Of a stretch of 28,980 nucleotides of DNA, positions 5,275-28,827 are shown piece after piece. Position 1 is the first letter of the stretch. Every line of letters starts with the position of its first letter. A program made the translations under genes and the position numbers. The notes under the pieces were generated by a model. It made no database searches. It saw only the letters and a list, made by a program, of their open reading frames with translations, and was not told the DNA's origin. The DNA comes from Aromatoleum sp. (GTDB lineage: Bacteria; Pseudomonadota; Gammaproteobacteria; Burkholderiales; Casimicrobiaceae): positions 12,672 through 41,651 of the forward strand of contig JAAFGU010000001.1 of assembly GCA_010365205.1 (NCBI GenBank). The letters are read 5' to 3'.

Positions 5275-6441
5275 ATGGGCCGCGGAATCTCCGACCGGCG
5301 AACACCGCGGGCAACGGATGAATCGGGCGCCGCCGGGCGTGCGAACGCGCGACGCCCGATCGCGGTCGGACTGGTCGGGCCGCTGCCGCCGCCGTCGGGC
5401 GGGATGGCCAATCAGACCCGGCAGCTCGCGCGGCTGCTGCGGGAAGCCGGACTCGTGGTCGAGATCGTTCAGGTCAACCGGCCGTACGCGCCGGCCTGGA
5501 TCGAGCGCGTTAGCGGCGTGCGGGCGCTTTTTCGGCTGTTGCCCTACGCGGCGCGGCTGTGGCGGTGCGCGGGCCGCGTCGACGTCTTCCACGTGATGGC
5601 GAATTCCGGTTGGGCGTGGCATCTGTTCGCCGCGCCGGCGGTGTGGATCGCGCGCCTGCGAGGCGTCCCGGCGGTCGTGAACTACCGGGGAGGCGAACTC
5701 GCGGCCTTCCTCGAGCGGCAGATACGATGGGTACGGCCGACGCTCGCGCGCGCTGCGGCGATCGTCGTCCCGTCGGGATTCCTCCAGGAAGTATTCGCCC
5801 GCTGGCGCGTGCGTGCGGAGATCGTGCCCAACATCATCGACCTGTCCCGTTTTGCGCCGGGTTCGCGCGATCCCGCGGCGCTCGACGTCCTCGTGTCCCG
5901 GAATCTCGAAGACATCTACGACATCGCGACCGCGATCGAGGCGTTCGCGGCGATCCGCGCTCTGCACCCGCAGGCGCGGCTGACCATCGCCGGATCGGGA
6001 CCCCGACGTGCAGATCTCGAAGCGCTTTGCGCGAAGCTCGCACTCGGCGCTGCCGTCCGCTTCACCGGCAGGGTGGACAACGAACAGATGCCCGACCTTT
6101 ACCGGAGCGCCGACGTCCTCCTCAACCCTTCGCTGGTCGACAACATGCCAATCTCCTTGCTCGAGGCGATGGCGAGCGGAACGCCGATTGTCACGACGAA
6201 CGTGGGCGGGATTCCGTTCCTGGTCGAGGACGGCAGGACGGCGCTGCTGGTCGAGCCGCGGCAGCCGCAGGCAATGGCGGCGGCGGTGCTGCGCCTGATC
6301 GACGACCCGGCGCTCGCGACCCGGCTCTCTGACGCCGGGCTCGCGGCGGCCCGAAATTACACGTGGCCCAAGGTCCGGCCGCGGCTCTTCGACGTGTACG
6401 CGCGCGCGATTGGCCGCTCGGTGGAGGGACGCGACGCATGA
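5275..6441 (+). CDS. GT4 glycosyltransferase
   Basis: ATG at 5275 (start could be slightly downstream). Motifs VGPLPPPSGGMANQ, SRNLEDIYD, NPSLVDNMPISLLEAMASGTPIVTTNVGGIP. Confidence 0.88.
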   Translation: MGRGISDRRTPRATDESGAAGRANARRPIAVGLVGPLPPPSGGMANQTRQLARLLREAGLVVEIVQVNRPYAPAWIERVSGVRALFRLLPYAARLWRCAGRVDVFHVMANSGWAWHLFAAPAVWIARLRGVPAVVNYRGGELAAFLERQIRWVRPTLARAAAIVVPSGFLQEVFARWRVRAEIVPNIIDLSRFAPGSRDPAALDVLVSRNLEDIYDIATAIEAFAAIRALHPQARLTIAGSGPRRADLEALCAKLALGAAVRFTGRVDNEQMPDLYRSADVLLNPSLVDNMPISLLEAMASGTPIVTTNVGGIPFLVEDGRTALLVEPRQPQAMAAAVLRLIDDPALATRLSDAGLAAARNYTWPKVRPRLFDVYARAIGRSVEGRDA

Positions 6442-8102
6442 GCAACGCGGATCGATTCATCGGCGTGACGCTGGAGGGTCCGGGTTGGGCGACCGCGGGC
6501 TCGACTCAGGCGCGCGGGCATGCCCACCTCGATGACCGCTTTCTGACGGCCGTCGAGATCGCGCGCGTCATCGACGAATGCCCGTCCGACGAGGTCTGGT
6601 GCGCAACGGTCGGAAAGCTCAACGGCTGCTTCGCGCTCGTCAGCCGGCGCGCCGGCGCGGTAATGGCCGCGGTCGACCGGCTGCGCAGCATTCCGCTCTT
6701 CTACCGGGTAGCCGACGCCGGAGGCGAGATCAGTGACAACGCGCTCTCGTTGCGCGATCGCTTCGCAAGTTGGACTGCCAATCCCGCGGGCGACGCCGAA
6801 TTCCAGCTCACCGGTTACGTGACGGGGGGCGAAACGCTGGTCAACGAAGTGCGACAACTCCAGGCCGGGGAGATGCTGCGCTGGGACGTCGGTACCTCGA
6901 GCAAACCGGAACGCCGGCGCTATCACGAGTTTCGGCATGGCGACTATTTCCGGGCGGACGCGCCCGAACTCATCGAGCGGCTCGTGGCGACGCACGAGCG
7001 CGTGTTCCGGCGGCTGGCGAACGGTGCTTCGGGACGCACGCTCGTCGTGCCGCTGAGCGGTGGCTACGACTCGCGGCTCATCGGGGTCTCGCTGCGCGAT
7101 CTCGGGCTGCGCGACGTCATCTGCTACAGCTACGGTCTGCCGGGAAACTGGGAATCGCGGATCTCGCAGGAGCTGGCGCGCTACCTCGGGTTCCGCTGGG
7201 AGTTCGTGCCCTACTCGGCCGAACGCTGGCGGGCGTGGGCGGCTTCCGAGCGATTCGCGCAATACTTCCGGAAGGCCGGCAACCTGGCGTCGATCCCCCA
7301 CATCCAGGACTGGCCCGCGGTAGCTGAACTGCAGCGCGCGCATGCGGTTCCGCCCGACAGCATCTTTGTTCCCGGCCATTCCGGCGATTTCCTGGCGGGC
7401 AGCCATATTCCGCGGGATTTTTTGAACGGCCGACCGGTTTCCAGGCGCGCGCTGCTCGACGCGCTTCAGCGCGCCCATTATTCGCTCTGGGATTGGCCCG
7501 CCGGCGGCCGGTCCGCGCAGCAGGCCGGATTCGACCGGCGTATCGAGGGCGTCATCGGCGCCGTGCCCGATGGCTCGCCCGATCTTGCAGCCGATCTCTT
7601 CGAGCGCTGGGACCTGCAGGAGCGGCAGGCCAAGTTCATCTGCAACTCGATGCGCGTCTACGAGGACTTCGGCTACGAATGGCGGCTGCCGCTGTTCGAC
7701 CACGAGCTGATGGATTTCTGGGCGCGGGTGCCGGTGGAAATGCGCGTCGGGCGCAGCCTTTATTTCCAGTTCGCCGCGGAACGGCAGCACATCCCGGTGA
7801 CGTCGCCCAACACCGATCGCAATGTCGTTGCGCGCGGTCTCGTCCGGGGAATGGAGATGGTCGGCCTGATGCCCTTGGCAAAGCGCGCGCGGCGGCTTTA
7901 CCGCAGGCTGCGCTGGCGGCGGGAGTACGAGGCTTCGTCGCTTGGGTGGTTTGCCGTTGTCGATTCAGATTATTTTCGGCGCACGTATACTGGGCACGAG
8001 ATCGTTCATTCCTACGTCGCGCTTGCCAGCAGGAATGTCACACTTTCCGAATCAGGCGGACGCGACCGTCGACAGGTACTTCCAGCGATTCGCGCGAGCT
8101 GA
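6438..8102 (+). CDS. Asparagine synthase-related protein (synthetase domain intact, glutaminase domain degenerate)
   Basis: ATGA overlap with the upstream GT. Motifs KLNGCFALV, AVDRLRSIPLFY, VPLSGGYDSR, PGHSGDFLAG, EWRLPLFDHELMDF. No N-terminal Cys. Confidence 0.8.
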   Translation: MSNADRFIGVTLEGPGWATAGSTQARGHAHLDDRFLTAVEIARVIDECPSDEVWCATVGKLNGCFALVSRRAGAVMAAVDRLRSIPLFYRVADAGGEISDNALSLRDRFASWTANPAGDAEFQLTGYVTGGETLVNEVRQLQAGEMLRWDVGTSSKPERRRYHEFRHGDYFRADAPELIERLVATHERVFRRLANGASGRTLVVPLSGGYDSRLIGVSLRDLGLRDVICYSYGLPGNWESRISQELARYLGFRWEFVPYSAERWRAWAASERFAQYFRKAGNLASIPHIQDWPAVAELQRAHAVPPDSIFVPGHSGDFLAGSHIPRDFLNGRPVSRRALLDALQRAHYSLWDWPAGGRSAQQAGFDRRIEGVIGAVPDGSPDLAADLFERWDLQERQAKFICNSMRVYEDFGYEWRLPLFDHELMDFWARVPVEMRVGRSLYFQFAAERQHIPVTSPNTDRNVVARGLVRGMEMVGLMPLAKRARRLYRRLRWRREYEASSLGWFAVVDSDYFRRTYTGHEIVHSYVALASRNVTLSESGGRDRRQVLPAIRAS

Positions 8103-9363: not shown

Positions 9364-10668
9364 GTGGCCGATATCAGCGCGCTTTCGCATCGACGGTTCT
9401 CGCGACTGTTGTTCGTGTCGCGCGCGTTCCCCGCCGATTTCGATCGCGCGACGTACGGCATCTACATGCGTATGCGGGTACTGCTCGAAGCGATCCGAAA
9501 TCTTGCGGACGACCTCGATATTCTTTTCTTCGTCGATCCGTCCGTTCCAATTTCGGAGGAATTACGTCGTCGCACCCAGGTTCGCATCGCGCAATCGTGG
9601 GGCGTCGAGGCCAACGTCTTTCTGGCGCACGAGCGGCCCGTAGCATCGGACGCCGGCTACTGGGCGAACTACGTCGCACCGGTGCTGGATTTCCGCCGCA
9701 ACCCCGACTACGCCGGCATGGCCGGACCGGAGCAGGTCGCGGCGGTGGAGGCGGCGCTCGATCGCGACATCTCGGCAATCGTCGTCCATCGGCTCGATGC
9801 AATGTGCCCGATTCTGACGATTAGAAGGAAGCTGCCGCCGATATTCCTCGATCTTGACGACATCGAGCATCGCAAGCTGGTTCGTGAACTGGCCCGGAAG
9901 CCTTTCTACCCGGGAAAACTTGCGTTGTTCCTCCGGGCGCCATCAGTCTTCCTGGCCGAACTTCGTGCGATTCGCCGCACTTGCTCGACCTTCGTCTGCT
10001 CGCAAAGCGATCGACGGTATCTGTCGCACTTCGTGCCATCGGATCGAATTGCGGAGGTGCCGAATGTAGCGACGTTTCCTCCGGATGCGCCGGCAGCGTC
10101 AGAGTCGGAAACCCTTCTCTTCCTCGGCTCCTACACTTACGCCGCCAATGTCGATGCCGCCGAGCATCTGGTGCGCGTGCTCTGGCCGCATATCAGGGCG
10201 TTGCGACCATCCGCCACGTTGCTGGTGGCCGGGCAACGGCCCGAACGGATTCCCAGTTACGCGGCGAAGCCGCCCGGCGTGGTTTTCACGGGGTTCGTCG
10301 ACGACCTGGCGGCGCTCTATGCGCGCGTCCGCGTGGTTTGCTGCCCGATTCGATACGGCGGCGGAACGCGGATCAAGATCATCGAGGCCGCCGGCTACGG
10401 CAGGCCGGTCGTGTCTACGCCGATCGGAGCCGAAGGGCTCGTGTTTACGCATCCGGACGAAATCGTTCTCGCACGTACCGACGACGAGTTCGCGGCATCG
10501 TGCGCCCGGCTGCTGGGCGACGCCGACCAGGCACGGGCGGTCGGTGTCGCGGCGCGCCGGCGTGCGCATTCAGCGTACGACCGCGACGCCGTGATCGCAG
10601 GCGTGCGCCGCATTGTGGAGGCCGGTCTGTCGACGACGGTCGACTCCGATGGGCGGGGTTTGGCGTGA
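9364..10668 (+). CDS. GT4 glycosyltransferase
   Basis: Motifs FLDLDDIEH, LLFLGSYTYAANVDA, CPIRYGGGTRIKIIEAAGYGRPVVSTPIGAEG. GTG start is approximate. Confidence 0.85.
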   Translation: MADISALSHRRFSRLLFVSRAFPADFDRATYGIYMRMRVLLEAIRNLADDLDILFFVDPSVPISEELRRRTQVRIAQSWGVEANVFLAHERPVASDAGYWANYVAPVLDFRRNPDYAGMAGPEQVAAVEAALDRDISAIVVHRLDAMCPILTIRRKLPPIFLDLDDIEHRKLVRELARKPFYPGKLALFLRAPSVFLAELRAIRRTCSTFVCSQSDRRYLSHFVPSDRIAEVPNVATFPPDAPAASESETLLFLGSYTYAANVDAAEHLVRVLWPHIRALRPSATLLVAGQRPERIPSYAAKPPGVVFTGFVDDLAALYARVRVVCCPIRYGGGTRIKIIEAAGYGRPVVSTPIGAEGLVFTHPDEIVLARTDDEFAASCARLLGDADQARAVGVAARRRAHSAYDRDAVIAGVRRIVEAGLSTTVDSDGRGLA

Positions 10669-11897
10669 CAGAGATTGGCGTGATGCGAGCTTCGGCCGCG
10701 AGCCAGCACGGCGTCGGGCTCCCGGCATGGTCGATCGTCCTGCCATGGGACCCCAGCCGGCCGGGCGGGGTCGACCTGGTGGCGCTGAACCTGTACCGTG
10801 AAATGCGCTCGCGCGGCGTGTATGAACCGCGGATGCTGATCGCGTCGTGGGAACATCCCGCGCCGCTCGACAGTGTCGACGACGGCCGGCCGACCACCCG
10901 GATCCGGTTGCGGTCGCCCGTTGGCGGTCGATCAGCGCTTGTGCATGCGCTGACATGGCTGCTGGCGCTACCTGCCGAACTTCCGCGCCTTGCCCGTCAC
11001 CTGCGTGCACACCGCGTCGCCGTCGTGAATGCGCATTTTCCCGGGCTGTCGGCGCTGCAATTCGTGTTGGTCAAGCGCTTCCTCTACCGCGATCTGCGCG
11101 TCGTCCTCTCCTTTCACGGACTCGATATCGGCGGCGCGGCGCGGACGCGCGGACTCGAGCGCTGGTTGTGGCGACGCCTGCTGCGCTCCGCCGACGCGCT
11201 GGTTGCCTGCTCGCACGATCTCGCCGGGCAGATCCGGGCCTTCGATCCCGGCGTGACGGCGAGGACGGTGACCATCCACAACGGCCTCGATACGGACGGC
11301 TTTCTCGCCGAAGCCGCGCCTGATGCTGTTCTGGATCCGCGCCTCGAGGGCCGCCGTTACATCCTCAGCGTTGCCGCGTACGAGCCCAAGAAGGGCCTGG
11401 ACGTGCTGATACGCGCGTTCGCGTCGCTGGTGCCGCGCGTCGAACCCGATGTCTTGCTCGTGCTGGTCGGCGTCGATCGCGGGATCCGCGCGGAGCTGCT
11501 GGCGCTCGCCGCGAACCTGGGTGTCGCCGATCGCGTCGTGTCGTTCACCGACGTCGCTCAAGCGCGCCTTCACCCCTTCTACCGGGCGGCGACCGCCTTC
11601 TGCCTGCCGTCGCGCCGCGAGCCGTTCGGGCTGGTACTGCTCGAGGCGGGCGCGTATTCGCTTCCGGTGGTGGCCTCGCGGGTGGGCGGGGTGCCGGAAA
11701 TCATTGCGCACGGCGAGACCGGACGGCTCGTGCCGCCCGAAGACCCGGAAGCGCTCGCCGCCGAGCTGCAGGACCTGCTGTCGCACCCCGCTGAGCGGGC
11801 CCGGCTGGGCGCGGCGCTGCATTCCCGCGTGCGTGCACGGTTCACCTGGGCTGCGGCGTACGAGCGCTACGTCGCGTTGCGGGCGCTCGAGCCCTGA
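10665..11897 (+). CDS. GT4 glycosyltransferase
   Basis: GTGA overlap with the previous gene (alternative ATG at 10683). Motifs VVNAHFPG, IHNGLD, SVAAYEPKKGLDVL, PSRREPFGLVLLEAGAYSLPVVASRVGGVPE. Confidence 0.88.
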   Translation: MTEIGVMRASAASQHGVGLPAWSIVLPWDPSRPGGVDLVALNLYREMRSRGVYEPRMLIASWEHPAPLDSVDDGRPTTRIRLRSPVGGRSALVHALTWLLALPAELPRLARHLRAHRVAVVNAHFPGLSALQFVLVKRFLYRDLRVVLSFHGLDIGGAARTRGLERWLWRRLLRSADALVACSHDLAGQIRAFDPGVTARTVTIHNGLDTDGFLAEAAPDAVLDPRLEGRRYILSVAAYEPKKGLDVLIRAFASLVPRVEPDVLLVLVGVDRGIRAELLALAANLGVADRVVSFTDVAQARLHPFYRAATAFCLPSRREPFGLVLLEAGAYSLPVVASRVGGVPEIIAHGETGRLVPPEDPEALAAELQDLLSHPAERARLGAALHSRVRARFTWAAAYERYVALRALEP

Positions 11898-11935: not shown

Positions 11936-13105
11936 TCAAGCGGTGCGTAGAAAGTACACGGGTTTGTCGAACGCCTGCGCAATCACCACGCCCTTGAGGT
12001 TGGGCACGTATTGCATCCGGCTCATGATCGCCGTGTCGCCGCCGTTCACGCCCGCACCGTAGGCGACTGGAGGAGTGCCCGTCGTGGGCAGTTTCGAAAC
12101 GGCGAACGTCGTCGGATCGATCACGTAAATCTCTTCGAGGTCCGTGAAGTACAGGAACCTGTCGAGCACCGGATCGTGGACGAAGCCTGCGCCGGATGCG
12201 CGACGCAGTGGCAGCCCCGAAGCGGGGGCGTCACGATAGGCGGCCGGACGCTTGGACAGATCGAAGTAGCCGATCTGCGAGTCGCCCATTCCGGGGCGCG
12301 GTCCGATCCGCACCAGTCGACTTCGCAGCGGGTCGACGAGCGCGCACCCGCGGTCGACGTCGACCCATTCGGTATCGGCCAGGATGGCATCCGGTTGCCC
12401 GGTGGCGTTGTTCCAGAGCTGAATTAGGTGCGAGCTGGGGAAATAGACGTCGCCGGTAACGGGATGCTGCGCCACCCAGTTCCCCTCGTATCCGCCGGCC
12501 CTGGCGTACATGCGTCCGTAGTGTTCAGCGGGGTACCAGCGGCCTCCGGACGCCAGAGGGATCGCATCGACCTGCCAGCCCTTGCCCTTGTCCATCGGCC
12601 AAACCGGGCCGCAACCATAGACGATCAACTCGTCGCGCCCCGCGTTGTATTGCGGCGCGTAGTACGAGTGCCGTGACACCGGCGTTCCATCGGGGTTGTA
12701 GAACGCGCTGCTGTTCGATTGATTGGTCCGCACGCCGGAGGCATTTGACGGCTTCACGATGCAGAACCATCGCGGCGCGTCGGTTTCCAGGGCAAGGGCG
12801 CGGACCTCGTTGCCGCCCCAAGTCCGACCGCCACCGCCGAACGACATCAGCATGCTGTCGGACTTGCGAAGGGCACCGCCGCTGAACGTGAAGGTACCCG
12901 TTCGCGGATTCGTGCCGAAGCCAATGTCCCGCCAGTTCCGGTCGGTGAGGCCAGCCGCGACCAGGTCGGCCAGCACCGCCGGGCTGTCGATTTGCCGCGT
13001 ATTCGGAATCGCGACCCATTCGCCGACCTTCCTTCCCTGAAGCCATGCTGGAATCCGTGCGGCCGTTGCCGCGGGAAAGCTGAGCGGGGCAGAGGTGGAC
13101 TTGAT
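11936..13105 (-). CDS. Gene C: hypothetical beta-propeller-like protein, 389 aa if initiated at ATC 13105 (first canonical start is GTG 12976)
   Basis: Frame is open from 13105 to TGA 11936. Upstream of the GTG it reads IKSTSAPLSFPAATAARIPAWLQGRKVGEWVAIPNTRQIDSPA. The body has repeated aromatic/DP blade-like motifs (SFGGGGRTWGGNEV, LVDPLRSRL, VHDPVLDRF, YVIDPTTF, MQYVPNLKG). Start position is uncertain. Confidence 0.72.
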   Translation of the reverse strand: MKSTSAPLSFPAATAARIPAWLQGRKVGEWVAIPNTRQIDSPAVLADLVAAGLTDRNWRDIGFGTNPRTGTFTFSGGALRKSDSMLMSFGGGGRTWGGNEVRALALETDAPRWFCIVKPSNASGVRTNQSNSSAFYNPDGTPVSRHSYYAPQYNAGRDELIVYGCGPVWPMDKGKGWQVDAIPLASGGRWYPAEHYGRMYARAGGYEGNWVAQHPVTGDVYFPSSHLIQLWNNATGQPDAILADTEWVDVDRGCALVDPLRSRLVRIGPRPGMGDSQIGYFDLSKRPAAYRDAPASGLPLRRASGAGFVHDPVLDRFLYFTDLEEIYVIDPTTFAVSKLPTTGTPPVAYGAGVNGGDTAIMSRMQYVPNLKGVVIAQAFDKPVYFLRTA

Positions 13106-13111
13106 TTACGG
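13092..13111. repeat. 20-bp direct repeat, copy 1 (B/C junction)
   Basis: GAGGTGGACTTGATTTACGG versus GAGGTGGGCTTGATTTACGG at 20611-20630 (19/20 identical). Confidence 0.9.
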
Positions 13112-13276
13112 GCCTCCGTGACGGTAGAAGAGCAGGCCGGGGTTCGGCATGCCGATGCCGCCCGCCCAAAGCGACCAGTCGTCGGGCACCCACGGGCATG
13201 GCAACGCCAGCGGTGTTCCGAGGTGGCCGTCGATCATGGCGCAGTCGAACGCCGAACGCGGTGACGTCGATTTCAT
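13106..13276 (-). CDS. Mini-B: 56-aa protein or internally deleted remnant of gene B (absent from the ORF track)
   Basis: MKSTSPRSAFDCAMIDGHLGTPLALPCPWVPDDWSLWAGGIGMPNPGLLFYRHGGP*. The first half matches the N-terminus and the second half the C-terminus of 20625..21728. ATGA overlap with gene A1. Confidence 0.7.
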   Translation of the reverse strand: MKSTSPRSAFDCAMIDGHLGTPLALPCPWVPDDWSLWAGGIGMPNPGLLFYRHGGP

Positions 13277-13847: not shown

Positions 13848-15356
13848 TCAGCCCCACCGCGTCAGGATGCGGCGTACGTCGTGCGCAATCGGGTGCCGCA
13901 CTGCGAAGACCATGGCCAGCCAGACCGGCAACGTCGTTGCCGCGGCGATGACGATGACCGCCCAGCCCGGGAGATGCTGGCCTCGAGACAGCACGGTCGC
14001 AAGGAGCGTTATGGCGATCGACGGAACGGCGATGGCCAGGCTCGGTCCGGCTGCCCGCAGAATGGCGCCAAGCGAAATGCCGAACACGCGGGAAAGGCTC
14101 ACCTGCGATGCAGCCACCGAGACGAGCGACATCGCGCTCATTGCAATCGTGACGGCGATGAGCCCGAACGGAGCGGCGACAATCAGGACGGCGACGCGGC
14201 AGATCAACGTGAAGAGCAGCACGTTGAAGGCGGGTCGAAGGCGGCCGAGTCCGGTATAGAAGGTGCTCCAGAGCAGATACGGGACGTAAAGCATGTTGCC
14301 CAGCACGATGATTCGGACGAGGTCAACCGACGGCAACCATTGGGAACCGTAAAGAAGCGCGATGAGTTCGGGCGCCAGGATGCCCACCGCAGCGAGCGCG
14401 GGCCACACCAGCGCGGTCAGATAGCGTACCGTGTTGCAGAATCCTTGACGCAGATCTCCGCCCGCCCGATTCTTTTCGGCGAAATACGGTGCGGCCACCG
14501 TGTAGACCGCCGAAGTGAAAACCCGGTAGACGATGTCCAGGATGGTGTTCGCCCGGCCGTAGAACCCGACCGCGACGAGCGAAATCACGCGGCCGATGAT
14601 CAGATCCGGGACGCCGCGCGCTACCTCGATCACGATGGCAGTGCCGCTCGACCACGCTCCGAAGCGAAATACCTCGCGCATGTGCCGCAGCGAGGGCCTC
14701 CAAGGCCAGTCGCGCGGACGGTACCGGAGAGCAAGCAGGATCGTCACGATGCTTCCGGCGAGAAGCCCCCACGCCATGCTCATGTAGCTGAATCCGGCAA
14801 ATGCGAGCATCACGGTCGTGGAAGAACCGACGATGGCGCTCGCGAGCCGGACAACCAATATCTTCCCGAAGTCCAGGTTGCGGCGGACCCACGCCATCGT
14901 TACGGTGCCGAACGGGATCAGCATGAAAGAGATCGCCAGTACGGACATGACCTTGGCGACGCCGGCTTCGCGATAAAAGATTGACGCCGGCCACGCAACG
15001 AGCAGAAGAACGGCCGCCAGCCCGAATCCGGTCACCATCGCAAGCGCGGAAGCTGTGCGGATCTTGTCGACGGTCAGGTCGCGCTCTTGGGCGATATAGT
15101 CGGCTACGCCGAAGTCCCGCAATACCTGGGCCACTGCCACGAGGACCATCGCGACGGAAAACGTCCCGAATTCCGCCGGCGTCAGCAGCCGCGCGACGAT
15201 CAGCGACGCAACGAACTGGATCAGCGTCGTGGCGTAGTTCTGAAGAAAGGAGAGCGCTAGCGCGCGACGGATTTTTGACAAGGGAACACGCTGCCCTGTG
15301 GGTGCCGCGATGATCCGCTCGGAGTCCTCCCCGGGCGGCGAAAGGTCCGGGAACAT
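13848..15356 (-). CDS. wzx: Wzx-type polysaccharide flippase (MOP/PST family)
   Basis: Many hydrophobic helices; IVARLLTPAEFG, PDLIIGR...VGFYGRA, LLYGSQWLPSV. Start may be a few codons downstream. Confidence 0.88.
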   Translation of the reverse strand: MFPDLSPPGEDSERIIAAPTGQRVPLSKIRRALALSFLQNYATTLIQFVASLIVARLLTPAEFGTFSVAMVLVAVAQVLRDFGVADYIAQERDLTVDKIRTASALAMVTGFGLAAVLLLVAWPASIFYREAGVAKVMSVLAISFMLIPFGTVTMAWVRRNLDFGKILVVRLASAIVGSSTTVMLAFAGFSYMSMAWGLLAGSIVTILLALRYRPRDWPWRPSLRHMREVFRFGAWSSGTAIVIEVARGVPDLIIGRVISLVAVGFYGRANTILDIVYRVFTSAVYTVAAPYFAEKNRAGGDLRQGFCNTVRYLTALVWPALAAVGILAPELIALLYGSQWLPSVDLVRIIVLGNMLYVPYLLWSTFYTGLGRLRPAFNVLLFTLICRVAVLIVAAPFGLIAVTIAMSAMSLVSVAASQVSLSRVFGISLGAILRAAGPSLAIAVPSIAITLLATVLSRGQHLPGWAVIVIAAATTLPVWLAMVFAVRHPIAHDVRRILTRWG

Positions 15357-15478
15357 GTACCGGACAAATTGCGCATTCTAACCGGGACCAGTCCTGCATT
15401 TGTCGTGCCGCACGCACTCCGTTCCGGCGTCCGTCGCTGCCAGCCGGTGGCGCGCAGCGTGAATCGTCTGCGATCAGA

Positions 15479-15487
15479 TGCTATAGT
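15479..15487 (+). promoter_or_regulatory. Possible extended -10 promoter element
   Basis: TGcTATAGT, 36 bp upstream of ATG 15524, in the divergent wzx/15524 intergenic region. Confidence 0.3.
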
Positions 15488-15523
15488 CGGGATCGTTTGG
15501 CGTATGCGGGATGAACGCGAGCG

Positions 15524-16693
15524 ATGATCGTCAAGAACCTGCGCCGCGAGCAATTGGGGGGGAACGTACGGCTGTCGGCTGACATCGTTCACGAGACGGT
15601 GCCGGCTCCGTTCGCCGTGATCTACTACGAGGTCGAGGAACGCCACGCCGACCTGCTGACCGACAGCTACGCCCCGTTCCTCATCGCAGCACTGGTGCCG
15701 GCAGTGTTCCACGGAGAGGCCCGGATTGTCGTCGAAGGTGACGTTGCGCCTCTGCTCGTCGCCGGACTGCGCTGCGTGATGGGCTGGCACCATCACTGGT
15801 ACGGCAAGCGGCATGCTCCGATTGCCATCGAGGCGGGAACTCGCGCGACCGCCCTGCCGCGGCGCCCATCGGCGGTATACCTTTCAGGCGGCATCGATTC
15901 GATGTTCACGCTTCGCCGCAACCAATTGGGATTTCCCGCAGGCCACGCGTGCCGGGCCGACTCCGCCATTCTGGTCAATGGTTTCGACGTGCGGCGTCCG
16001 GACGCCATTCGGATTGCGCGCGACCACGTGCAGCAGATCGCCGATGCGGCGACCTTGGAGTTGATCACCGTTTCGTCGAACGTGCCGCTGCTCGACGACG
16101 ACTACCCACTCTGGGCGAAGCAGTTCGGCGGTGCCGCCTTCTGCTCGGTGGCACATGCGCTGGCACCCGGTTTTCAGCGGGTCTGGTTCTCGGCGAACAG
16201 TCCGATCCCCGATCTGACCCCGTGGACCTTGCATCCGGCGACCGATCCCAACTATTCCAGCGCCGACGTCGAGATTCGTCAGGAGGGGCTTGAATTCACC
16301 TGCGTCGAGAAGGTCCGCCTGCTTGCGCACTGGGATGTCGCCCTTCGTCACGCCCGAGTGTGCACGCGTAACCCGGTCGATCGACTCAATTGCGGGCAGT
16401 GCGAGAAGTGCATTCGCACCCAATTGGCGTTTCTGCTCGCGGGGCGCCTCAGCGATGCGTCGGTGTTTCCGAACGATGACATCACGGTCGCACAGGTGCG
16501 AGCGGTGCGTATCCGCAACGAGGGTCAAGCGCGCGACAACCACGATCTCGTCAGGGAGCTGCGCGCCGCGGGGCGCGCCAATCTCGCCCGCGCAGTTGCG
16601 GCTAATCTTCGCGAATACGAAAAATGGGTCGCGTGGCGCGATGGCACCGGCCTCAGGCACCGCGCCGCGCGCGTGCTGGGATTCCGGCACTAA
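15524..16693 (+). CDS. Hypothetical PP-loop (QueC-like fold) protein, paralog 1
   Basis: YLSGGIDS nucleotide-binding loop; PWTLHPATDPNYSS; C-x9-C-x2-C-x2-C (CTRNPVDRLNCGQCEKC). Confidence 0.75.
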   Translation: MIVKNLRREQLGGNVRLSADIVHETVPAPFAVIYYEVEERHADLLTDSYAPFLIAALVPAVFHGEARIVVEGDVAPLLVAGLRCVMGWHHHWYGKRHAPIAIEAGTRATALPRRPSAVYLSGGIDSMFTLRRNQLGFPAGHACRADSAILVNGFDVRRPDAIRIARDHVQQIADAATLELITVSSNVPLLDDDYPLWAKQFGGAAFCSVAHALAPGFQRVWFSANSPIPDLTPWTLHPATDPNYSSADVEIRQEGLEFTCVEKVRLLAHWDVALRHARVCTRNPVDRLNCGQCEKCIRTQLAFLLAGRLSDASVFPNDDITVAQVRAVRIRNEGQARDNHDLVRELRAAGRANLARAVAANLREYEKWVAWRDGTGLRHRAARVLGFRH

Positions 16694-16702
16694 GGGGCGC
16701 CG

Positions 16703-17920
16703 ATGATCATCCGAAATTTTGACGTGACTTCGGTCGCAGGCGCGGCCCAGGTGAGCGCCGAAGTCGTATGGGAGGAGAGCGCCCGGGCATCGTTCGATCT
16801 CCACTTCCGGGTGCCCACGGAACACGCGGCGCTGATCTCCGCGAATGCCGACGCGTTTCTGACGGCGGCCCTTTATCCTGCGCGGCGCGCGGGTGAGCGG
16901 CGGGTTCGGGTCGAGGGCGAGGTCTGTCCTTACCTGGTGCGTGGTCTCGAAACCGCGCTCCATTGGCACTGGCACTGGTTCGGCGAGCGCTGCCCGATTG
17001 TCGCCATCGAGGCGCCCGCACGGACCCGACCGATTGCCACCCGCGACGCGGCCGGAGCGCTGCTTTTCTTCTCGGGCGGCGCCGATTGTATGCATACGCT
17101 TCGTCGCAACCGTCTGGAAGTGCCGATCAGTCACCCGGCTGCGATCAGCCACGGGCTGGTGATCGAAGGATTCGACATGCGACGGGGCAACACGTACGCG
17201 CGCTCGCTCGAAGCGTCGCGCCTGGTTGCGGCCGATGCGGATGTGGCGCTCGTGCCCGTAACCACGAACGTCCGCGACCTCGACCTCGACGACGAATTCT
17301 GGGATTGGGAGTTCCACGGCGCGGCGCTCGCATCGGTCGCACACGTGTTCGCGGGCGCGTTCGATCTCGCCTACATTGCGTCCGGAATCGAGATCGAGAG
17401 TCTTTTTCCATGGGGCTCGCATCCGCTGGTCGATCCGCTGTATTCGAGTTGCGATATCAAGGTCCGGCACGACAGCGCGGAGGTGCCGCGTCTGGAGAAG
17501 ATCAGGCTGCTCGCCGAGTGGCCCATCGCGCTCGACAATATGCGCGTCTGTTACCGCCACCCGCAGAATTCCCTGAATTGCGAGGAGTGCGAGAAATGCG
17601 TGCGCACGATGGTCGAACTGGTCGCCGTGGGCGCTCTCGAGCGCGCGGGCGCGTTTCGGCACACCGACATCACGGCGGAACTCGTCCGCGCGGTCCGGTT
17701 TTCCCTTCAGTATCACCGGATCCGTTGGGAAGAGATGATCCCCGACCTCGAACGTCGCGGCCGTTCTGACTTGGTGGCGGCCATTCGGGAAATCGTCACG
17801 CGTTTCCATCGCTGGGACGCGTGGAAGCACGAGCGGGACTGGAAAGGGCGGATCAAGCGCTTCGATCGCCGATTCCTCGGCGGCCGGCTTCTGCCTTATC
17901 TTCGGCGCCTGTACGCTTGA
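16703..17920 (+). CDS. Hypothetical PP-loop (QueC-like fold) protein, paralog 2
   Basis: FFSGGADC; PWGSHPLVDPLYSS; CYRHPQNSLNCEECEKC. Colinear with paralogs 1 and 3. Confidence 0.75.
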   Translation: MIIRNFDVTSVAGAAQVSAEVVWEESARASFDLHFRVPTEHAALISANADAFLTAALYPARRAGERRVRVEGEVCPYLVRGLETALHWHWHWFGERCPIVAIEAPARTRPIATRDAAGALLFFSGGADCMHTLRRNRLEVPISHPAAISHGLVIEGFDMRRGNTYARSLEASRLVAADADVALVPVTTNVRDLDLDDEFWDWEFHGAALASVAHVFAGAFDLAYIASGIEIESLFPWGSHPLVDPLYSSCDIKVRHDSAEVPRLEKIRLLAEWPIALDNMRVCYRHPQNSLNCEECEKCVRTMVELVAVGALERAGAFRHTDITAELVRAVRFSLQYHRIRWEEMIPDLERRGRSDLVAAIREIVTRFHRWDAWKHERDWKGRIKRFDRRFLGGRLLPYLRRLYA

Positions 17921-17925
17921 CGCGG

Positions 17926-19248
17926 ATGGCGCTGACGATGCCGGACGACAAGGGCGACGACAAAATGCCGCGCGACGATTCGCCGCCGGCACAGATTCGG
18001 AGCGCCTTTGGCGCCCGCGCCCGATCTCGCATTCTCGAAATCGTGCGCGTAGCGCTGCTCGCAGGCAATCGCCTGGCTCGGCGGGCGGGGGTCGTCCCGC
18101 GCGGCGTGCTCGTGATTCCGCCGGCGGCACCGGGGAGCCTGGGCGACGAGGCGATGGTGGTCGCGACCATCGACGCCATCCGCGCCAGGTTCGCCGGCCA
18201 TATCGGGTTGCTACGCTATCGGGGCGGTCTCGACTATCCGGTGCAGGTCGACGCAAGACTCGACCTGTCGCGGTATTTCCTCCAGGGCGGCGCGCGAGGC
18301 GACGAATTGCGCTTGCTGGCGGCGCTCTTTCGGTATCGCCACGTGGCGCTGCTCGGCGCCGACGTCCTCGATGGCTTCTATTCCGACGACGCCGTTCGCC
18401 TGCGGTTGCGACTTGTCGAGCTGGCGGCCCAGGCGGGCGCCTGCACCACTGTGCTCGGCTTCAGCCTCAATGCCCAACCTACGGCCGGTGCGGCGGCGCT
18501 GCTGCGCGCGCTGCCCGCATCGGTGCTCCTGTTGGCACGGGACCGCAAGTCGCAACAACGCCTTTCGTCGATCGTCGGCCGGCCAGTGGAGTGCGTCGCG
18601 GACACCGCCTTTCTGCTGGCCCCGGATACCACCGACCCGCGGGGCGATGAAATCGCGCGTTGGGCGACCGGGGTGCGTGCGCGCGGCGGCCGCGTGGTCG
18701 GCGTCAACCTGTCCGCGATCGCGATGGAGGCGGCGGGGCTGAAGCGCGCAGCGATCGTGCAGGTGGCGCACGATACACTCGAAAGGCTGGTCGCCGCCCG
18801 CCCGGCGACCGCGTTGTTGTTGATTCCGCACGACATGCGGGGCGACGCGTCCGACGTCAATCTTCTGCGTCAGCTCGCGGCGAGGCTCGAGCGTCCCGCC
18901 TTCGACGTGCGATTCCTCGTGCCGCCCCTGACGGCGCGACTGGTCAAGCGGGTGTGCGCCAGTGTCGACCTGGTCTGGACCGGCCGCATGCACGTTGCCA
19001 TTGCCGCCCTCGGGCAAGGTGTGCCCATCGTGGCTCACGAGTATCAGGGCAAGTTCGCGGGTCTGTTTGCCGATCTCGGGCTCGAGAACATGCTGTGGGA
19101 TACCGATCGCGAGCCGCTGCCGGCACCACTCACGGCCCTGCTTGTCGAGGCACTTGATCGCGCCGACGCGCTGAAGGCTTCGATCGCGCCGAAGCGGACG
19201 GCACTGACTGCGCGGGCGGCACGGAACATCGATCTGCTGCGCCTATGA
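17926..19248 (+). CDS. Polysaccharide pyruvyl transferase family protein
   Basis: GSLGDEAM, LLGADVLDG, LARDRKS, VADTAF, VGVN, IPHD, WTGRMHVAIAALGQGVP. Start uncertain among several nearby ATGs. Confidence 0.85.
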   Translation: MALTMPDDKGDDKMPRDDSPPAQIRSAFGARARSRILEIVRVALLAGNRLARRAGVVPRGVLVIPPAAPGSLGDEAMVVATIDAIRARFAGHIGLLRYRGGLDYPVQVDARLDLSRYFLQGGARGDELRLLAALFRYRHVALLGADVLDGFYSDDAVRLRLRLVELAAQAGACTTVLGFSLNAQPTAGAAALLRALPASVLLLARDRKSQQRLSSIVGRPVECVADTAFLLAPDTTDPRGDEIARWATGVRARGGRVVGVNLSAIAMEAAGLKRAAIVQVAHDTLERLVAARPATALLLIPHDMRGDASDVNLLRQLAARLERPAFDVRFLVPPLTARLVKRVCASVDLVWTGRMHVAIAALGQGVPIVAHEYQGKFAGLFADLGLENMLWDTDREPLPAPLTALLVEALDRADALKASIAPKRTALTARAARNIDLLRL

Positions 19249-20411
19249 TCCTGTCCGGGTTGCGAAGTTCGACCGTCGCCGGATGGGCGCGACTGAGCGC
19301 GGAGGTTCGCCACGAAGTGGCCTCCGCGCCACTCGCGTCGCTGTTCGTCGAGGTCCCGGAGCGGTTCGGCGACTGGTTGCATGAAGTCTACGATTGTTTC
19401 GCGATCGCCTGTTTCGCGCCAGCGACAATGCATCGGGAGACGCGGCTCGTCGTCGAGGGCGATGTCTGTCCGCTGCTGATCGACGGCTTGGGCGTCGCGA
19501 TGGCTTGGTACCGGCATTGGTATGGCCCGCGCTGGGCGCCGCTTGCGTTCGAAGCGGGGCGCCGCGCCGATGTGCTGCCGGCAAGCGGGCGTGTTGGTGC
19601 GATCTACTTTTCCTGCGGCGTCGATTCGCTGTACTCGTTGCGCAGGATCACGGCCGGAATGCCCTCCGCGCACTGGGGGGCGCCGCGGGCCGCGTTGTTC
19701 GTGATCGGTTACGACTTGCGCAAGCCGATGGCGATCGAGCGCGCCCTTGCGAACGCGCAGGCTGCGGCCGATTTGGCCGGCCTGACCCTCGTGCCGGTGC
19801 GATCGAACATACCGTCGCTCGACGACGACTACAACCTGTGGACCCTTCAGTTCGGCGGCCCGGGATTTGCCGCACTTGCCCATGCGCTGGGACGGGGAAT
19901 CGCACGTGCCTGGCTGGGAGCCGATTGCGACATTCCGAATCTGGTTCCTTGGTGCAACCATCCGGCAACGGCGCCCGAGTTCTCGTCGCACGACGTCGAA
20001 ATCCGGCAAGACGGGATCGAGGCCACACGGGCAGAGAAGGTGGGTGCCATTGCGGACTGGGACATCGCGCAACGCCATCTGCGCGTATGCACGAAAAATC
20101 CCGAGCACATGCTCAACTGCGGTCGCTGCGAAAAGTGCGTGCGTACGCGCCTGGAACTGCTGGCCTTCGGTAGTGCGGACGCGTTGCCGGCGTTCGGCGG
20201 GAGCACGCTCTCCGCCGCCGACGTGAACGCGATCGAGATACGGATGGATTCCATCTACTACGATGAGATCGTACCGCCCTTGCGTGCGCGCGGACGCGAG
20301 GATCTCATCGCCGCGATCGACGAGCGCAAGCGGGAATGGGCGCGGTACAAGCGCTGGCGCTCGGGCGGAACTCTGCGCGCGCGCGCCCGGCGGCTGGTCG
20401 GGGCCGGGTGA
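19245..20411 (+). CDS. Hypothetical PP-loop (QueC-like fold) protein, paralog 3
   Basis: ATGA overlap with the pyruvyl transferase; YFSCGVDS; PWCNHPATAPEFSS; CTKNPEHMLNCGRCEKC. Confidence 0.75.
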   Translation: MILSGLRSSTVAGWARLSAEVRHEVASAPLASLFVEVPERFGDWLHEVYDCFAIACFAPATMHRETRLVVEGDVCPLLIDGLGVAMAWYRHWYGPRWAPLAFEAGRRADVLPASGRVGAIYFSCGVDSLYSLRRITAGMPSAHWGAPRAALFVIGYDLRKPMAIERALANAQAAADLAGLTLVPVRSNIPSLDDDYNLWTLQFGGPGFAALAHALGRGIARAWLGADCDIPNLVPWCNHPATAPEFSSHDVEIRQDGIEATRAEKVGAIADWDIAQRHLRVCTKNPEHMLNCGRCEKCVRTRLELLAFGSADALPAFGGSTLSAADVNAIEIRMDSIYYDEIVPPLRARGREDLIAAIDERKREWARYKRWRSGGTLRARARRLVGAG

Positions 20412-20498
20412 GGATGGGCAAGTCCACGGATGAGCTCGCAGCGGGTGGCCGACGCCGGATGGTGTCCCGACGTCAGCGCGTCGTCCGCAGCGACTGGA

Positions 20499-20540
20499 CG
20501 CTAAGCCCGGCGCCGACGTGCGCCGGCACTGTACTTAGCG
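20499..20540. terminator. Composite inverted repeat between convergent genes (possible terminator or structured RNA)
   Basis: CGCTAAG-c-CCGGCGC-cgacgt-GCGCCGG-cactgta-CTTAGCG: two perfect 7-bp stems; no U-tract. Confidence 0.35.
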
Positions 20541-20603
20541 CCCGCGCCTCGCGCCAGAGGATCGCCGACATTGCGTAGAAGAGGTAGGCGAGATCAAAAT
20601 ACG

Positions 20604-20624
20604 CGGAGCTGAGGTGGGCTTGAT
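20604..20624 (-). pseudogene. Seven-codon stub of gene C (IKPTSAP)
   Basis: Directly follows the TAA of gene B2 in frame and matches IKSTSAP at 13105-13085. Similarity then ends and the frame stops at 20535-20537. Confidence 0.6.
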
Positions 20625-20630
20625 TTACGG
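20611..20630. repeat. 20-bp direct repeat, copy 2 (B/C junction)
   Basis: 19/20 identical to 13092-13111. Confidence 0.9.
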
Positions 20631-21728
20631 ACGTCGATGACGATAGAAGAGCAGATCGGGATTCGGCACGTCGACGCCGCCTGCCCACATCGACCAGTCG
20701 TTCACCGGATCGTAGACGGCCATTCGCGCTTGAAGCTTCCTGCCGTTGGGGGCATCGACGGCGGCGACGCGCCAGCGGTTTTCCGACGGCTGGTAGACGT
20801 AGAGCCGGCCGTCGTTGAGGTTGAGGTATTCGACGACGCGATGCCGGCTGTTGAACACGATGTGCGTGTGGTTCGCCGCCCGCGGGGTCTCGAGCGGCCC
20901 TGGCGGCGGCGCGCGCTCGGAAAATGCACCGCTGTCCATGTCGATTCGGATGAACAGCGCATCGATCGGGTCGATTGTGTAGACGCAACGGCCCGACAGA
21001 TCGATCGCGACATAGTCCTTCCAGATGCTGGGCTTGCGACCCCTGCTGTTGTCAGGAAGATTGACGGGCACGCGCCACGAGGGCGGCGACGTCGCAATGT
21101 CCAGCACCTGCATTTTCGGTCCCAGCCCGATCCGGCTTATGGTCCTTTTCACCGGATCGAGCCACGAGAACCACGAATCGGTGTAAGCGATGCCTGCGTC
21201 AACGCCCGCCCTCGACCACCGTCGCGGCGGCGGCGCGAACGGGTCGAACCACATCACCTCGTCATGGACGAAGTTCGCGTCGCTGGCACGCGCCGGTGTT
21301 TCGTTGGGTGGATTGTCCGTGGTGATATCCATCACGCCAGGAATCATCCAGAACCGGTGGAGCATGGCATCCCACTGCCAGCCGACGTAATCGGGGTGTT
21401 TGGGCTGCACCGAATTCCCGCCGAATCCGGCGTACGGGTACTCGAGCCGCCAACCCGCGTTCGGGTTCCGGGGATTCGCCATCCGCTCGGCGACGTCAAG
21501 CGACCAGGTTTCCTGGCGGTAGCTGCTGACCCATGGCTGCCCGCCGTAGTCGCCGCCGACGAAATAGATGCGCCCATTGTCCGGACAAAAGGCGCCCGTG
21601 ACATGTTTCATCCCCCCGCCCCACGGAGGCGCGTTCGGGGCGAACCCGCACGGCAGCGCGAGCATGGTTCCGAGTAGACCCTCCGGAGTCTGGCACGCGA
21701 AGGTCAACGGCGTTGAGGTTGCCTTCAC
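20625..21728 (-). CDS. Gene B2: hypothetical beta-propeller/kelch-like protein, 367 aa, no signal peptide
   Basis: GTGA overlap with gene A2. Blade-like motifs GRIYFVGGDYGG, WQWDAMLHRFW, MWFDPF, SWLDPVKR, YTIDPID, AVYDPVND. Both termini are homologous to mini-B. Confidence 0.78.
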   Translation of the reverse strand: MKATSTPLTFACQTPEGLLGTMLALPCGFAPNAPPWGGGMKHVTGAFCPDNGRIYFVGGDYGGQPWVSSYRQETWSLDVAERMANPRNPNAGWRLEYPYAGFGGNSVQPKHPDYVGWQWDAMLHRFWMIPGVMDITTDNPPNETPARASDANFVHDEVMWFDPFAPPPRRWSRAGVDAGIAYTDSWFSWLDPVKRTISRIGLGPKMQVLDIATSPPSWRVPVNLPDNSRGRKPSIWKDYVAIDLSGRCVYTIDPIDALFIRIDMDSGAFSERAPPPGPLETPRAANHTHIVFNSRHRVVEYLNLNDGRLYVYQPSENRWRVAAVDAPNGRKLQARMAVYDPVNDWSMWAGGVDVPNPDLLFYRHRRP

Positions 21729-27972: not shown

Positions 27973-28827
27973 TTGCCCGCCGGTAGCTTCAAGGCGGTGA
28001 AGAAAGGCATCAAGCGGCGCCTCAAGATGCTGCGGCAAGCTTTCGCTCGGACCTTCCGTTCATTCACGCCCGACGACTTGCTGGAGCGATTGCGGCAGCT
28101 GGGTATCGTGCCGGGTGACGTCGTACTCGTCCACAGCTCTTACGACGCATTCGAGGGATTTTCGGGCAAGCCGACCGATGTAATCGCGATCCTTCAGCGA
28201 GCAGTCGGCGCGGAGGGAACGCTGCTGATGCCGACGATGGCGTTCACGGGGACTGCCGTCGAGTACGTCAGTCGCACGCCGGTGTTCGACGTGGCGCGCA
28301 CGCCCTCGCGGATGGGCCTGCTCAGCGAACTCTTTCGCCGCTCTCCGGGCGTCGTGCGCAGCGTGCACCCGACGCACCCGGTGGCGATCTGGGGGCGCGA
28401 CGCCGAAGGACTCGCCGCCGATCACCATCGGGCGGGCACGCCGTGCGGTGCGGGGACCCCGTTCGCCCGGCTGCTCGAGCGGCAAGGTAAAATTCTGTTC
28501 CTGGGTGCTGATATCGACAGCCTGACCTTCTACCACACGATCGAGGAAATGCTCGAAACGCGCCTGCCGGCCTCGCCGTTCACGCAACAGGTCTATCAGC
28601 TGAAGTCGAAGTTGCCGGACGGCACGTCGGTCGTCACGCAGACGCGTCTGTTCGAGCCCTCCGTTTCCCGCCGCCGCAACCTCGGCAAGCTGGCGCCGGA
28701 ACTGCGTCGGCAGGGCGCTTGGCACGAGGCGCGCGTGGGCCGGCTCAAACTGACTCTTCTGGGGACCAGCGATGTGCTGGCGGCGGTCGCCGCGATGGCC
28801 GATCGAGGGGCGTACTGCTATGACTGA
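27973..28827 (+). CDS. AAC(3)-family (aminoglycoside 3-N-acetyltransferase/YokD-like) acetyltransferase
   Basis: GDVVLVHSS, GTLLMPT, PSRMGLLSELFR, RSVHPTHPVAIWG, ILFLG...TFYHTIEE. TTG start is uncertain. Confidence 0.85.
   Translation: MPAGSFKAVKKGIKRRLKMLRQAFARTFRSFTPDDLLERLRQLGIVPGDVVLVHSSYDAFEGFSGKPTDVIAILQRAVGAEGTLLMPTMAFTGTAVEYVSRTPVFDVARTPSRMGLLSELFRRSPGVVRSVHPTHPVAIWGRDAEGLAADHHRAGTPCGAGTPFARLLERQGKILFLGADIDSLTFYHTIEEMLETRLPASPFTQQVYQLKSKLPDGTSVVTQTRLFEPSVSRRRNLGKLAPELRRQGAWHEARVGRLKLTLLGTSDVLAAVAAMADRGAYCYD

Follow-up and report, generated by a model that had tools for sequence, protein, structure and literature searches.

The three paralogous genes described here lie at positions 15524 to 20411 of a 28,980-nucleotide stretch of DNA from Aromatoleum sp. 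(Casimicrobiaceae; contig JAAFGU010000001.1, positions 12,672 to 41,651), the whole of which is referred to as the window. Together with an embedded gene for a polysaccharide pyruvyl transferase they form one tightly packed operon, and on profile evidence their products belong to an unnamed, MurL/QatC-like family of PP-loop proteins that is associated with glycan loci. The feature is real and well defined and represents a new, uncharacterised branch of a known kind of enzyme. The three proteins probably modify acid groups on a polysaccharide in a way that has not yet been described. More specifically, they may be ATP-dependent carboxylate-adenylating tailoring enzymes of an exopolysaccharide, with the carboxyl of a pyruvate ketal as the leading candidate substrate and that of a uronate as the alternative, a reading to which we attach a probability of about one half. 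For the use of ATP, the adenylation of a carboxylate, the substrate and the product alike, the argument is drawn from fold, gene fusions and gene context.

The paralogs are full-length and, as a sequence-only reading of this DNA had reported, colinear, with open reading frames (ORFs) confirmed at 389, 405 and 388 amino acids, all on the forward strand. Paralog 1 (P0001, 15524 to 16693) comprises an N-terminal domain, a PP-loop domain, a four-cysteine knuckle and C-terminal helices. Paralog 2 (P0002, 16703 to 17920), which ends in a basic C-terminal tail, is the nearest of the three to the family consensus, and paralog 3 (P0003) runs from 19245 to 20411. Inspection of the gene neighbourhood revealed that the pyruvyl transferase gene (17926 to 19248, forward strand), which the sequence-only reading had not mentioned, sits between paralogs 2 and 3. 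Its product is a member of PF04230 (E 1.7e-12, 48.3 bits against a cut-off of 25.3) and is matched weakly by the CsaB and WcaK models; the ATG at 17926 is its presumed start, within a frame that is open from 17821. Just 9 nt separate the stop of paralog 1 from the start of paralog 2, and 5 nt the stop of paralog 2 from the pyruvyl transferase ATG, while the pyruvyl transferase stop and the overlapping ATG of paralog 3 share 4 nt, with the sequence ATGA. These very tight junctions make paralogs 1 and 2, the pyruvyl transferase gene and paralog 3 a single operon, within which the start of paralog 3 is translationally coupled to the pyruvyl transferase gene. End to end, the three proteins are about 37-48% identical (BLASTP E 1e-83 to 1e-121). 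A recent tandem duplication of one gene was considered as their origin and rejected, since paralog 2 is just 36-37% identical to the others and groups in the tree with different relatives, paralogs 1 and 3 falling in a common clade.

What kind of protein is this? The architecture is of the MurL/QatC type: an N-terminal alpha/beta domain leads into a PP-loop ATP-pyrophosphatase core like that of QueC, which is followed by a presumed zinc knuckle of four cysteines and, last, by C-terminal helices. The AlphaFold2 model of paralog 1, with a pLDDT (predicted local distance difference test) value of 92.4, scored 15.0 in structure comparison against QatC (PDB 9y02; 295 residues aligned, model residues 1-361), 14.5 against QueC (3bl5; root-mean-square deviation 3.1, residues 113-308) and, over the core domain, 13.3 against Cap9 and about 10 against the other PP-loop enzymes LarE, MnmA, ThiI, TilS and TtuA. 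A structure search for the PP-loop fold, which the sequence-only reading had called for, recovered that fold. Foldseek against reviewed UniProt models gave MurL as the best and sole full-length characterised match (E 1.3e-10, residues 2-365, template modelling (TM) scores 0.56/0.50, both sides of the MurL comparisons being predicted models), with the QueC core next. Neighbours in the ESM Atlas agree, with MurL at TM 0.67 and a feature score to the MurL cluster of 0.84, the latter a lead only. Of known proteins, MurL comes nearest in architecture, QatC among solved structures and QueC in the core domain.

The earlier description of a QueC-like PP-loop and four-cysteine layout is thus right for the fold and the superfamily; by sequence, the three proteins are not members of the QueC family. 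The core domain has the QueC-type fold, and an hhalign comparison of the family with nine QueC sequences from related genomes (92.9% probability, E 3.6e-7, 184 columns) puts the PP-loop and the cysteine knuckle in register. The SGGxDS loop of QueC occurs as SGGIDS in P0001 and as variants in P0002 and P0003, and the four cysteines, a predicted zinc site, align with the C-x8-C-x2-C-x2-C motif, the first spacer being x9 here and longer in some relatives as against x8 in QueC. The PF06508 (QueC) model, however, scores 12.5 bits for P0001, 10.6 for P0002 and nothing for P0003, all below its cut-off of 22 and from the C-terminal cysteine region only, and the cut-off is passed by none of 34 family members. 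The QueC substrate motifs YxQxHxxE, VPxRN and YPDC (PMC13329287) are missing: the hhalign alignment holds no counterpart of YGQRH, and the family has HPxxDPxYSS where QueC has YPDC (YPDCRPEY). The paralogs also carry N- and C-terminal domains additional to the QueC structure (PDB 3bl5). Scans with Pfam and NCBIfam assigned the three proteins to no family at a significant level, with only faint sub-threshold QueC and DUF6395 matches of the cysteine region; a profile search of PDB sequences returned spurious matches only (E>0.3), the PADLOC defence models matched none of the three paralogs at E<=1, and MurL was not among the proteins recovered when genomes of the class were searched with the family profile. 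The family's own profile, A2, matches all three over their full length, with E values of 1.3e-151 for P0001, 1.2e-157 for P0002 and 3.8e-138 for P0003.

The motifs on which the sequence-only reading was built are all present in the paralogs, including VEG[DE]V.P.L at residue 70 and PW..HP...P.[YF]SS, with the correction that the tryptophan motif is W-x3-W-[YF]-G rather than W-x2-W. The C-x9-C-x2-C-x2-C motif, which aligns to the QueC zinc motif and is a presumed zinc site, is encoded on the forward strand at 16361-16411 in paralog 1, with the corresponding four-cysteine motifs of paralogs 2 and 3 at 17549-17599 and 20088-20138. When counted over 292 aligned family sequences (281 distinct), all four cysteines are invariant (292/292), and the loop is SGGxDS in 230, SGGxDA in 26 and TGGxDS in 16, the SGGxDA form implying that the last loop serine is dispensable. 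Residues S121, G123, D125, N186, K295 and R351, invariant in a 34-sequence family alignment, are kept in all three paralogs.

It is within the PP-loop itself that the three diverge. Paralog 1 carries the family consensus, SGGIDS (15884-15901, forward strand), paralog 2 SGGADC (17072-17089, forward) and paralog 3 the variant SCGVDS (19611-19628, forward). The cysteines had been taken to suggest different chemistry or regulatory roles, a proposal that finds no support in paralog 2 and is plausible for paralog 3. Paralog 2 agrees with the family consensus at all but 2 of 55 conserved positions; its loop-end cysteine alternates with serine across orthologs of 66-78% identity, whose loops read SGGADC or SGGADS, and the same position is alanine in about 9% of the family, so that there appears to be no sign of altered chemistry. 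Active FMN (flavin mononucleotide) adenylyltransferases have a cysteine at the equivalent loop position. In paralog 3 the change is a conserved glycine-to-cysteine substitution: SCGxDS is kept in all four lineage members examined (the window protein, P0135, L126 and L125; 71-75% identity), even as the neighbouring residue varies. It is accompanied by N133I, D241A and L309A at near-invariant positions in P0003 and in P0135, the sole ortholog examined at these sites. Taken together, SCGxDS and its accompanying changes look like a selected lineage signature that fits a specialised catalytic or partner role, and a specialised or impaired role for paralog 3 is plausible. Catalysis seems to be intact in paralogs 1 and 2; paralog 3 may be either specialised or a non-catalytic partner.

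Orthologs have been found for each paralog in other metagenomes and metagenome-assembled genomes, namely P0005 (77%) and P0006 (61%) for paralog 1, P0183 to P0187 (66-78%) for paralog 2, and P0135 (71%), L126 (73%) and L125 (75%) for paralog 3. P0006 and P0135 come from one sample and occupy matching neighbour positions. In L126, from a Casimicrobiaceae metagenome-assembled genome (MAG), paralog 2 (72%), the pyruvyl transferase (58%) and paralog 3 (73%) stand in the same order with the 4-nt overlap preserved, and the order is also the same in L125 (74%, 64% and 75%, respectively). The flanks of this module differ from place to place and the L127 copy lies beside a Y1 transposase, which together indicate that the module moves as a unit. 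Copies of the paralog 2/paralog 3 module that look fragmented, with ORFs of 155-325 amino acids, were seen at L127:1028-3623 and L125:10001-13722, the latter between housekeeping genes for a chorismate-binding enzyme, Rpe and a HAD hydrolase. Decay, mobility of the module or assembly frameshifts could each account for them.

The wider family is large. A profile search of 1.84 billion cluster representatives, clustered at 50% identity, matched 9,387 clusters at E<=1e-3 and 4,225 at E<=1e-30, and a genome scan found members in at least 581 genomes of the Chloroflexota, Desulfobacterota, Planctomycetota, Verrucomicrobiota, Acidobacteriota, Nitrospirota, Cyanobacteria and Bacteroidota. Their neighbours in glycan loci include ABC-2 exporters, glycosyltransferases of the GT1, GT2 and GT4 families, a GMC oxidoreductase with 4Fe-4S proteins, PGA_cap and AsnB. 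Tandem arrays are frequent in such loci, with seven copies in two, three in two and two in eight more. The seven-copy arrays are at L069:3008-12730 (a Planctomycetaceae MAG) and L086:8607-17459 (an Acidobacteriota MAG); every copy in L069 has an SGGxDA loop. The GMC oxidoreductase stands beside family members in 12 of 84 loci, within 1 kb in 8 of them and often accompanied by genes for a 4Fe-4S dicluster protein and an NrfD-like membrane protein (L004:6276-7979, L037, L014, L011, L024, L029, L089 and the contig of P0011, for example); it could represent a membrane-linked sugar oxidation that feeds the PP-loop enzyme.

Two recurrent partnerships bear on function. The first is with the pyruvyl transferase itself, which is fused to family members in both orders (P0051, P0130, P0150 and L121) and adjoins them in L010 and L015; one ESM Atlas cluster of 55 members is 96% PF04230, and on the contig of P0007 two adjacent genes of about 393-395 amino acids, of which only P0007 was checked as a family member, lie beside a pyruvyl transferase gene. 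Other fusions are to a sulfotransferase (PF00685; P0048, 705 aa) and to a FemAB-like GNAT, Acetyltransf_6 domain (P0065, 815 aa). The second partnership defines a nearly pure clade (48 of the 54 leaves under the common ancestor, from 48 of 84 distinct loci, mostly Desulfobacterota) whose members follow a RimK-family alpha-L-glutamate ligase (TIGR00768, 162-190 bits against a cut-off of 143), and with it a GNAT, at a downstream distance of 0-560 bp. The window paralogs fall outside this clade in the tree. A universal partnership with pyruvyl transferase was therefore discarded, as most of the sampled members have none and an entire clade has a RimK-type ligase for its partner. The module of GNAT, RimK-family ligase and family gene (at about 10001-11130) was seen in L001, L003 and 46 further loci (for instance L012, L017, L019 and L045), often beside a TLC/MFS-type transporter. 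It mirrors the MurD2-MurL pair and also resembles the logic of N-acetylglutaminylglutamine amide (NAGGN) synthesis by Ngg/AsnO, and its product may be a small peptide that ends in D-Glu or is amidated at its C-terminus.

The surroundings of the operon are those of a polysaccharide locus, as had been proposed, and the window is an XrtA/PEP-CTERM-type exopolysaccharide (EPS) locus by its marker families, with window proteins scoring 484.1 bits for TIGR03087 (cut-off 316.65) and 484.9 for TIGR03097 (cut-off 188.1). An exosortase gene was not found within the window. The locus encodes a nucleotide-sugar dehydrogenase that makes uronic acids (2971-4287, forward strand; TIGR03026, 350 bits against 189.8), two AsnB-like amidotransferases, several GT4 glycosyltransferases and a WbsX glycosyltransferase, a heparinase II/III-like protein, a methyltransferase, a deacetylase and an AAC(3)-like acetyltransferase.

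How might the three enzymes act in such a setting? The known relatives are informative here. MurL requires ATP and Mg2+ and releases AMP (PMC5808125, PMC13279940); as a unidirectional (L-to-D), ATP-dependent epimerase it adenylates an acid, epimerises the adjacent carbon and frees AMP (PMC5808125). QueC converts an acid to an amide and then to a nitrile. Cap9 couples an acid to the N-terminus of a protein through an amide bond, and QatC probably does so too (PMC13279940). As QueC, Cap9 and MurL all first spend ATP on a carboxylate, we infer that the paralogs would likewise adenylate a carboxyl. The enzyme, in the cytoplasm, would bind ATP at the PP-loop and adenylate a carboxyl on the lipid-linked repeat unit with release of pyrophosphate, after which a nucleophile would displace AMP; by analogy with QueC and Cap9, ammonia or an amine would play that part and an amide would result. 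The requirement for ATP would place the step in the cytoplasm, on the lipid-linked unit and before flipping by Wzx. The leading candidate substrate is the carboxyl of the pyruvate ketal set by the co-transcribed pyruvyl transferase, because MurD2, RimK-type ligases and pyruvyl transferases all install a carboxyl group and are encoded beside, or fused to, a PP-loop enzyme of this sort. On a ketal, amide-type substitution would be likelier than a MurL-type inversion, since the ketal carbon has no alpha-hydrogen. Alternatively, the substrate could be a uronate carboxyl arising through the sugar dehydrogenase of the locus, where both amidation and C5 inversion are conceivable.

Several points weigh against this reading. 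A pyruvyl transferase stands beside or fused to the family gene in only 3 of 84 loci of the genome scan (with a fourth 7 kb off) and in 2 of 10 loci from the same class; as it accompanies a minority of sampled members, the partnership does not extend to the whole family, and some other substrate is possible, for instance a uronate or a free acid. We know of no amidated pyruvate ketal described in any polysaccharide, and a literature search for one found none. There is one pyruvyl transferase, and no obvious need for three enzymes to follow it. Finally, the locus already contains two AsnB-like amidotransferases. The AsnB-type enzymes of XrtA/PEP-CTERM loci (TIGR03108; WbpS-like) and the WbpG-type N-sugar amidotransferases share with the paralogs a PP-loop, a place in polysaccharide loci, an ATP-activated carbonyl or carboxyl and the delivery of nitrogen, but they belong to other families: the paralogs have no glutaminase domain, their cysteine motif and its position are unlike those of WbpG, and there is no sequence match. 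WbpG-like enzymes form a cluster of the QueC superfamily in a survey of PF06508 which, these amidotransferases apart, mentions no pyruvyl, polysaccharide or MurL-type members (PMC13329287). A literature search found no study of the present family in polysaccharide loci and no published characterisation.

One proposal, which is compatible with the carboxyl-adenylating role set out above, is that the enzyme is heteromeric, with paralog 3, and perhaps others, serving as a non-catalytic scaffold or specificity subunit alongside paralogs 1 and 2 and the pyruvyl transferase. We regard this as possible, if on balance unlikely. It would account for the replacement in the paralog 3 lineage of near-invariant G122 (in four members), N133 and D241 (in P0003 and P0135), for the coupling of the paralog 3 start to the pyruvyl transferase gene, and for the conserved order of paralog 2, pyruvyl transferase and paralog 3. 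Yet paralog 3 retains D125, N186, K295, R351 and the four cysteines, and substitutions at the second loop position (A, S, C, L or N) occur in about 4% of the family, single-copy members included. Somewhat less likely still is the full combination, a so far undescribed second step on pyruvylated sugars, in which the fresh ketal carboxyl would be adenylated and turned into an amide, a nitrile or an amide-linked substituent, paralog 3 would be a dedicated partner of the pyruvyl transferase, and the family as a whole, the RimK-linked clade included, would edit carboxyls that have just been installed by a partner enzyme.

A different outcome of the same first step would be that of MurL, whereby carboxyl adenylation permits inversion of the adjacent carbon, at C5 of a uronate or the alpha-carbon of an amino-acid or lactyl group, and the adenylate is then hydrolysed without amide formation. 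MurL is the closest characterised full-length protein, an ATP/AMP-dependent unidirectional epimerase of the same overall architecture that spends ATP and releases AMP on a carboxylate substrate. It is encoded beside a ligase that installs a carboxyl-bearing group, and the RimK-linked clade of the present family parallels this ligase-then-epimerase pairing of MurD2 and MurL; the locus, moreover, makes uronic acids. The likeness is nevertheless at the level of fold, with 12-15% identity and TM of 0.5-0.67, and the murD2 neighbour and peptidoglycan context are replaced here by EPS genes, and the window has no Mur ligase. On a pyruvate ketal, whose carbon has no alpha-hydrogen, epimerisation is ruled out by chemistry, so that the product of the embedded or fused pyruvyl transferase would be unusable, and three of the four characterised relatives form amides (shown for QueC and Cap9, proposed for QatC). 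Epimerisation is therefore an unlikely role for the three paralogs.

More doubtful again is a Cap9-like activation of an acyl donor, in which a free small acid would be adenylated and joined to an amine or hydroxyl of the glycan, such as an amino sugar freed by the deacetylase, each paralog having its own acid or site. With the same core, Cap9 and QatC link a carboxylate to the N-terminus of a protein; a polysaccharide deacetylase and an AAC(3)-like N-acetyltransferase are among the products of the locus, and arrays of up to seven paralogs fit with diversified specificities. However, the operon has no genes for synthesis of a donor, and the pyruvyl transferase fusions and the adjacency of a Glu ligase are less directly explained in this way than by the editing of carboxyls. 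QatC (PDB 9y01/9y02) resembles the paralogs further in that its N-terminal extension aligns with their N-terminal domain, but it shares only 12-14% identity with them, neither qatA, qatB or qatD nor CBASS neighbours are present here, and it works with a protein partner, QatB, whereas the partners of the paralogs are glycan enzymes. That the three are simply true QueC (preQ0 synthesis) or QatC/Cap9-type anti-phage proteins which happen to lie in this locus is rejected as highly improbable: the fold and zinc motif are common to all, and canonical QueC (PF06508) was not detected in this 85%-complete assembly, but the sub-threshold QueC scores, the absence of YGQRH and YPDC, the lack of PADLOC matches and of nearby que or qat genes, and the operon shared with a pyruvyl transferase inside an EPS locus all speak against it.

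Of the remaining features of the window, the gene for a Wzx-type flippase (13848-15356, reverse strand; PF13440, E 2.7e-61) is divergent from the operon, and the 167-bp intergenic region between them (15357-15523) is, by position only, its presumed promoter region. A scan of 15200-20800 found no match to the sigma-70 consensus; the same interval holds 7 terminator-like sites against 3.3 expected from shuffles, but these fall inside genes and are uninformative. Two copies of a 99-nt direct repeat, 83% identical (13084-13182 and 20603-20701), bracket the wzx gene, the paralogs and the pyruvyl transferase gene. Both lie inside duplicated reverse-strand genes, and the arrangement is consistent with a cassette that was inserted into a duplicated gene module or is flanked by one. 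The second AsnB-like gene (6363-8102) has the synthetase part of Asn_synthase only (E 5.7e-9), with no glutaminase domain detected, and may encode an ammonia-dependent or otherwise diverged amidotransferase. The AAC(3)-like aminoglycoside N-acetyltransferase homolog (27973-28827; PF02522, E 1.8e-52) lies at the edge of the EPS locus, where it adjoins the polysaccharide deacetylase, and may serve in the re-acylation of amino sugars rather than in resistance.

The host assembly is a MAG of 3.0 Mb in which these three are the only copies of the family. A family match occurs in only 1 of 24 congeneric genomes, where it is weak and interrupted by a stop, and in 13 of 400 genomes of the class, a scarcity that marks the block as accessory. 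The congeneric copy (G022:C24:387415-388362; L008/L009) is distant, at 30-43% identity, is split by the stop into ORFs of 166 and 179 amino acids, and is possibly a pseudogene. Canonical QueC was seen in 2 of 12 congeners searched, compared with 8 of 8 genomes from other families of the order.

The family to which the three paralogs belong is among the larger ones without an assigned function, with more than 9,000 clusters at 50% identity across many phyla, and its genes are found within the clusters for synthesis of capsules, O-antigens and biofilm polysaccharides. If the editing of ketal or uronate carboxyls is indeed its role, it would represent a common and so far unrecognised decoration of bacterial surface glycans, one that would alter their charge, antigenicity and recognition by phage as well as the material properties of the EPS. 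The RimK-linked clade points to a general logic of two steps, installation of a carboxyl by a partner and subsequent editing by a MurL-like enzyme, and this would extend the MurD2-MurL paradigm past peptidoglycan. Paralog 2, pyruvyl transferase and paralog 3, as a conserved module, offer a compact and directly testable system in which to follow it.

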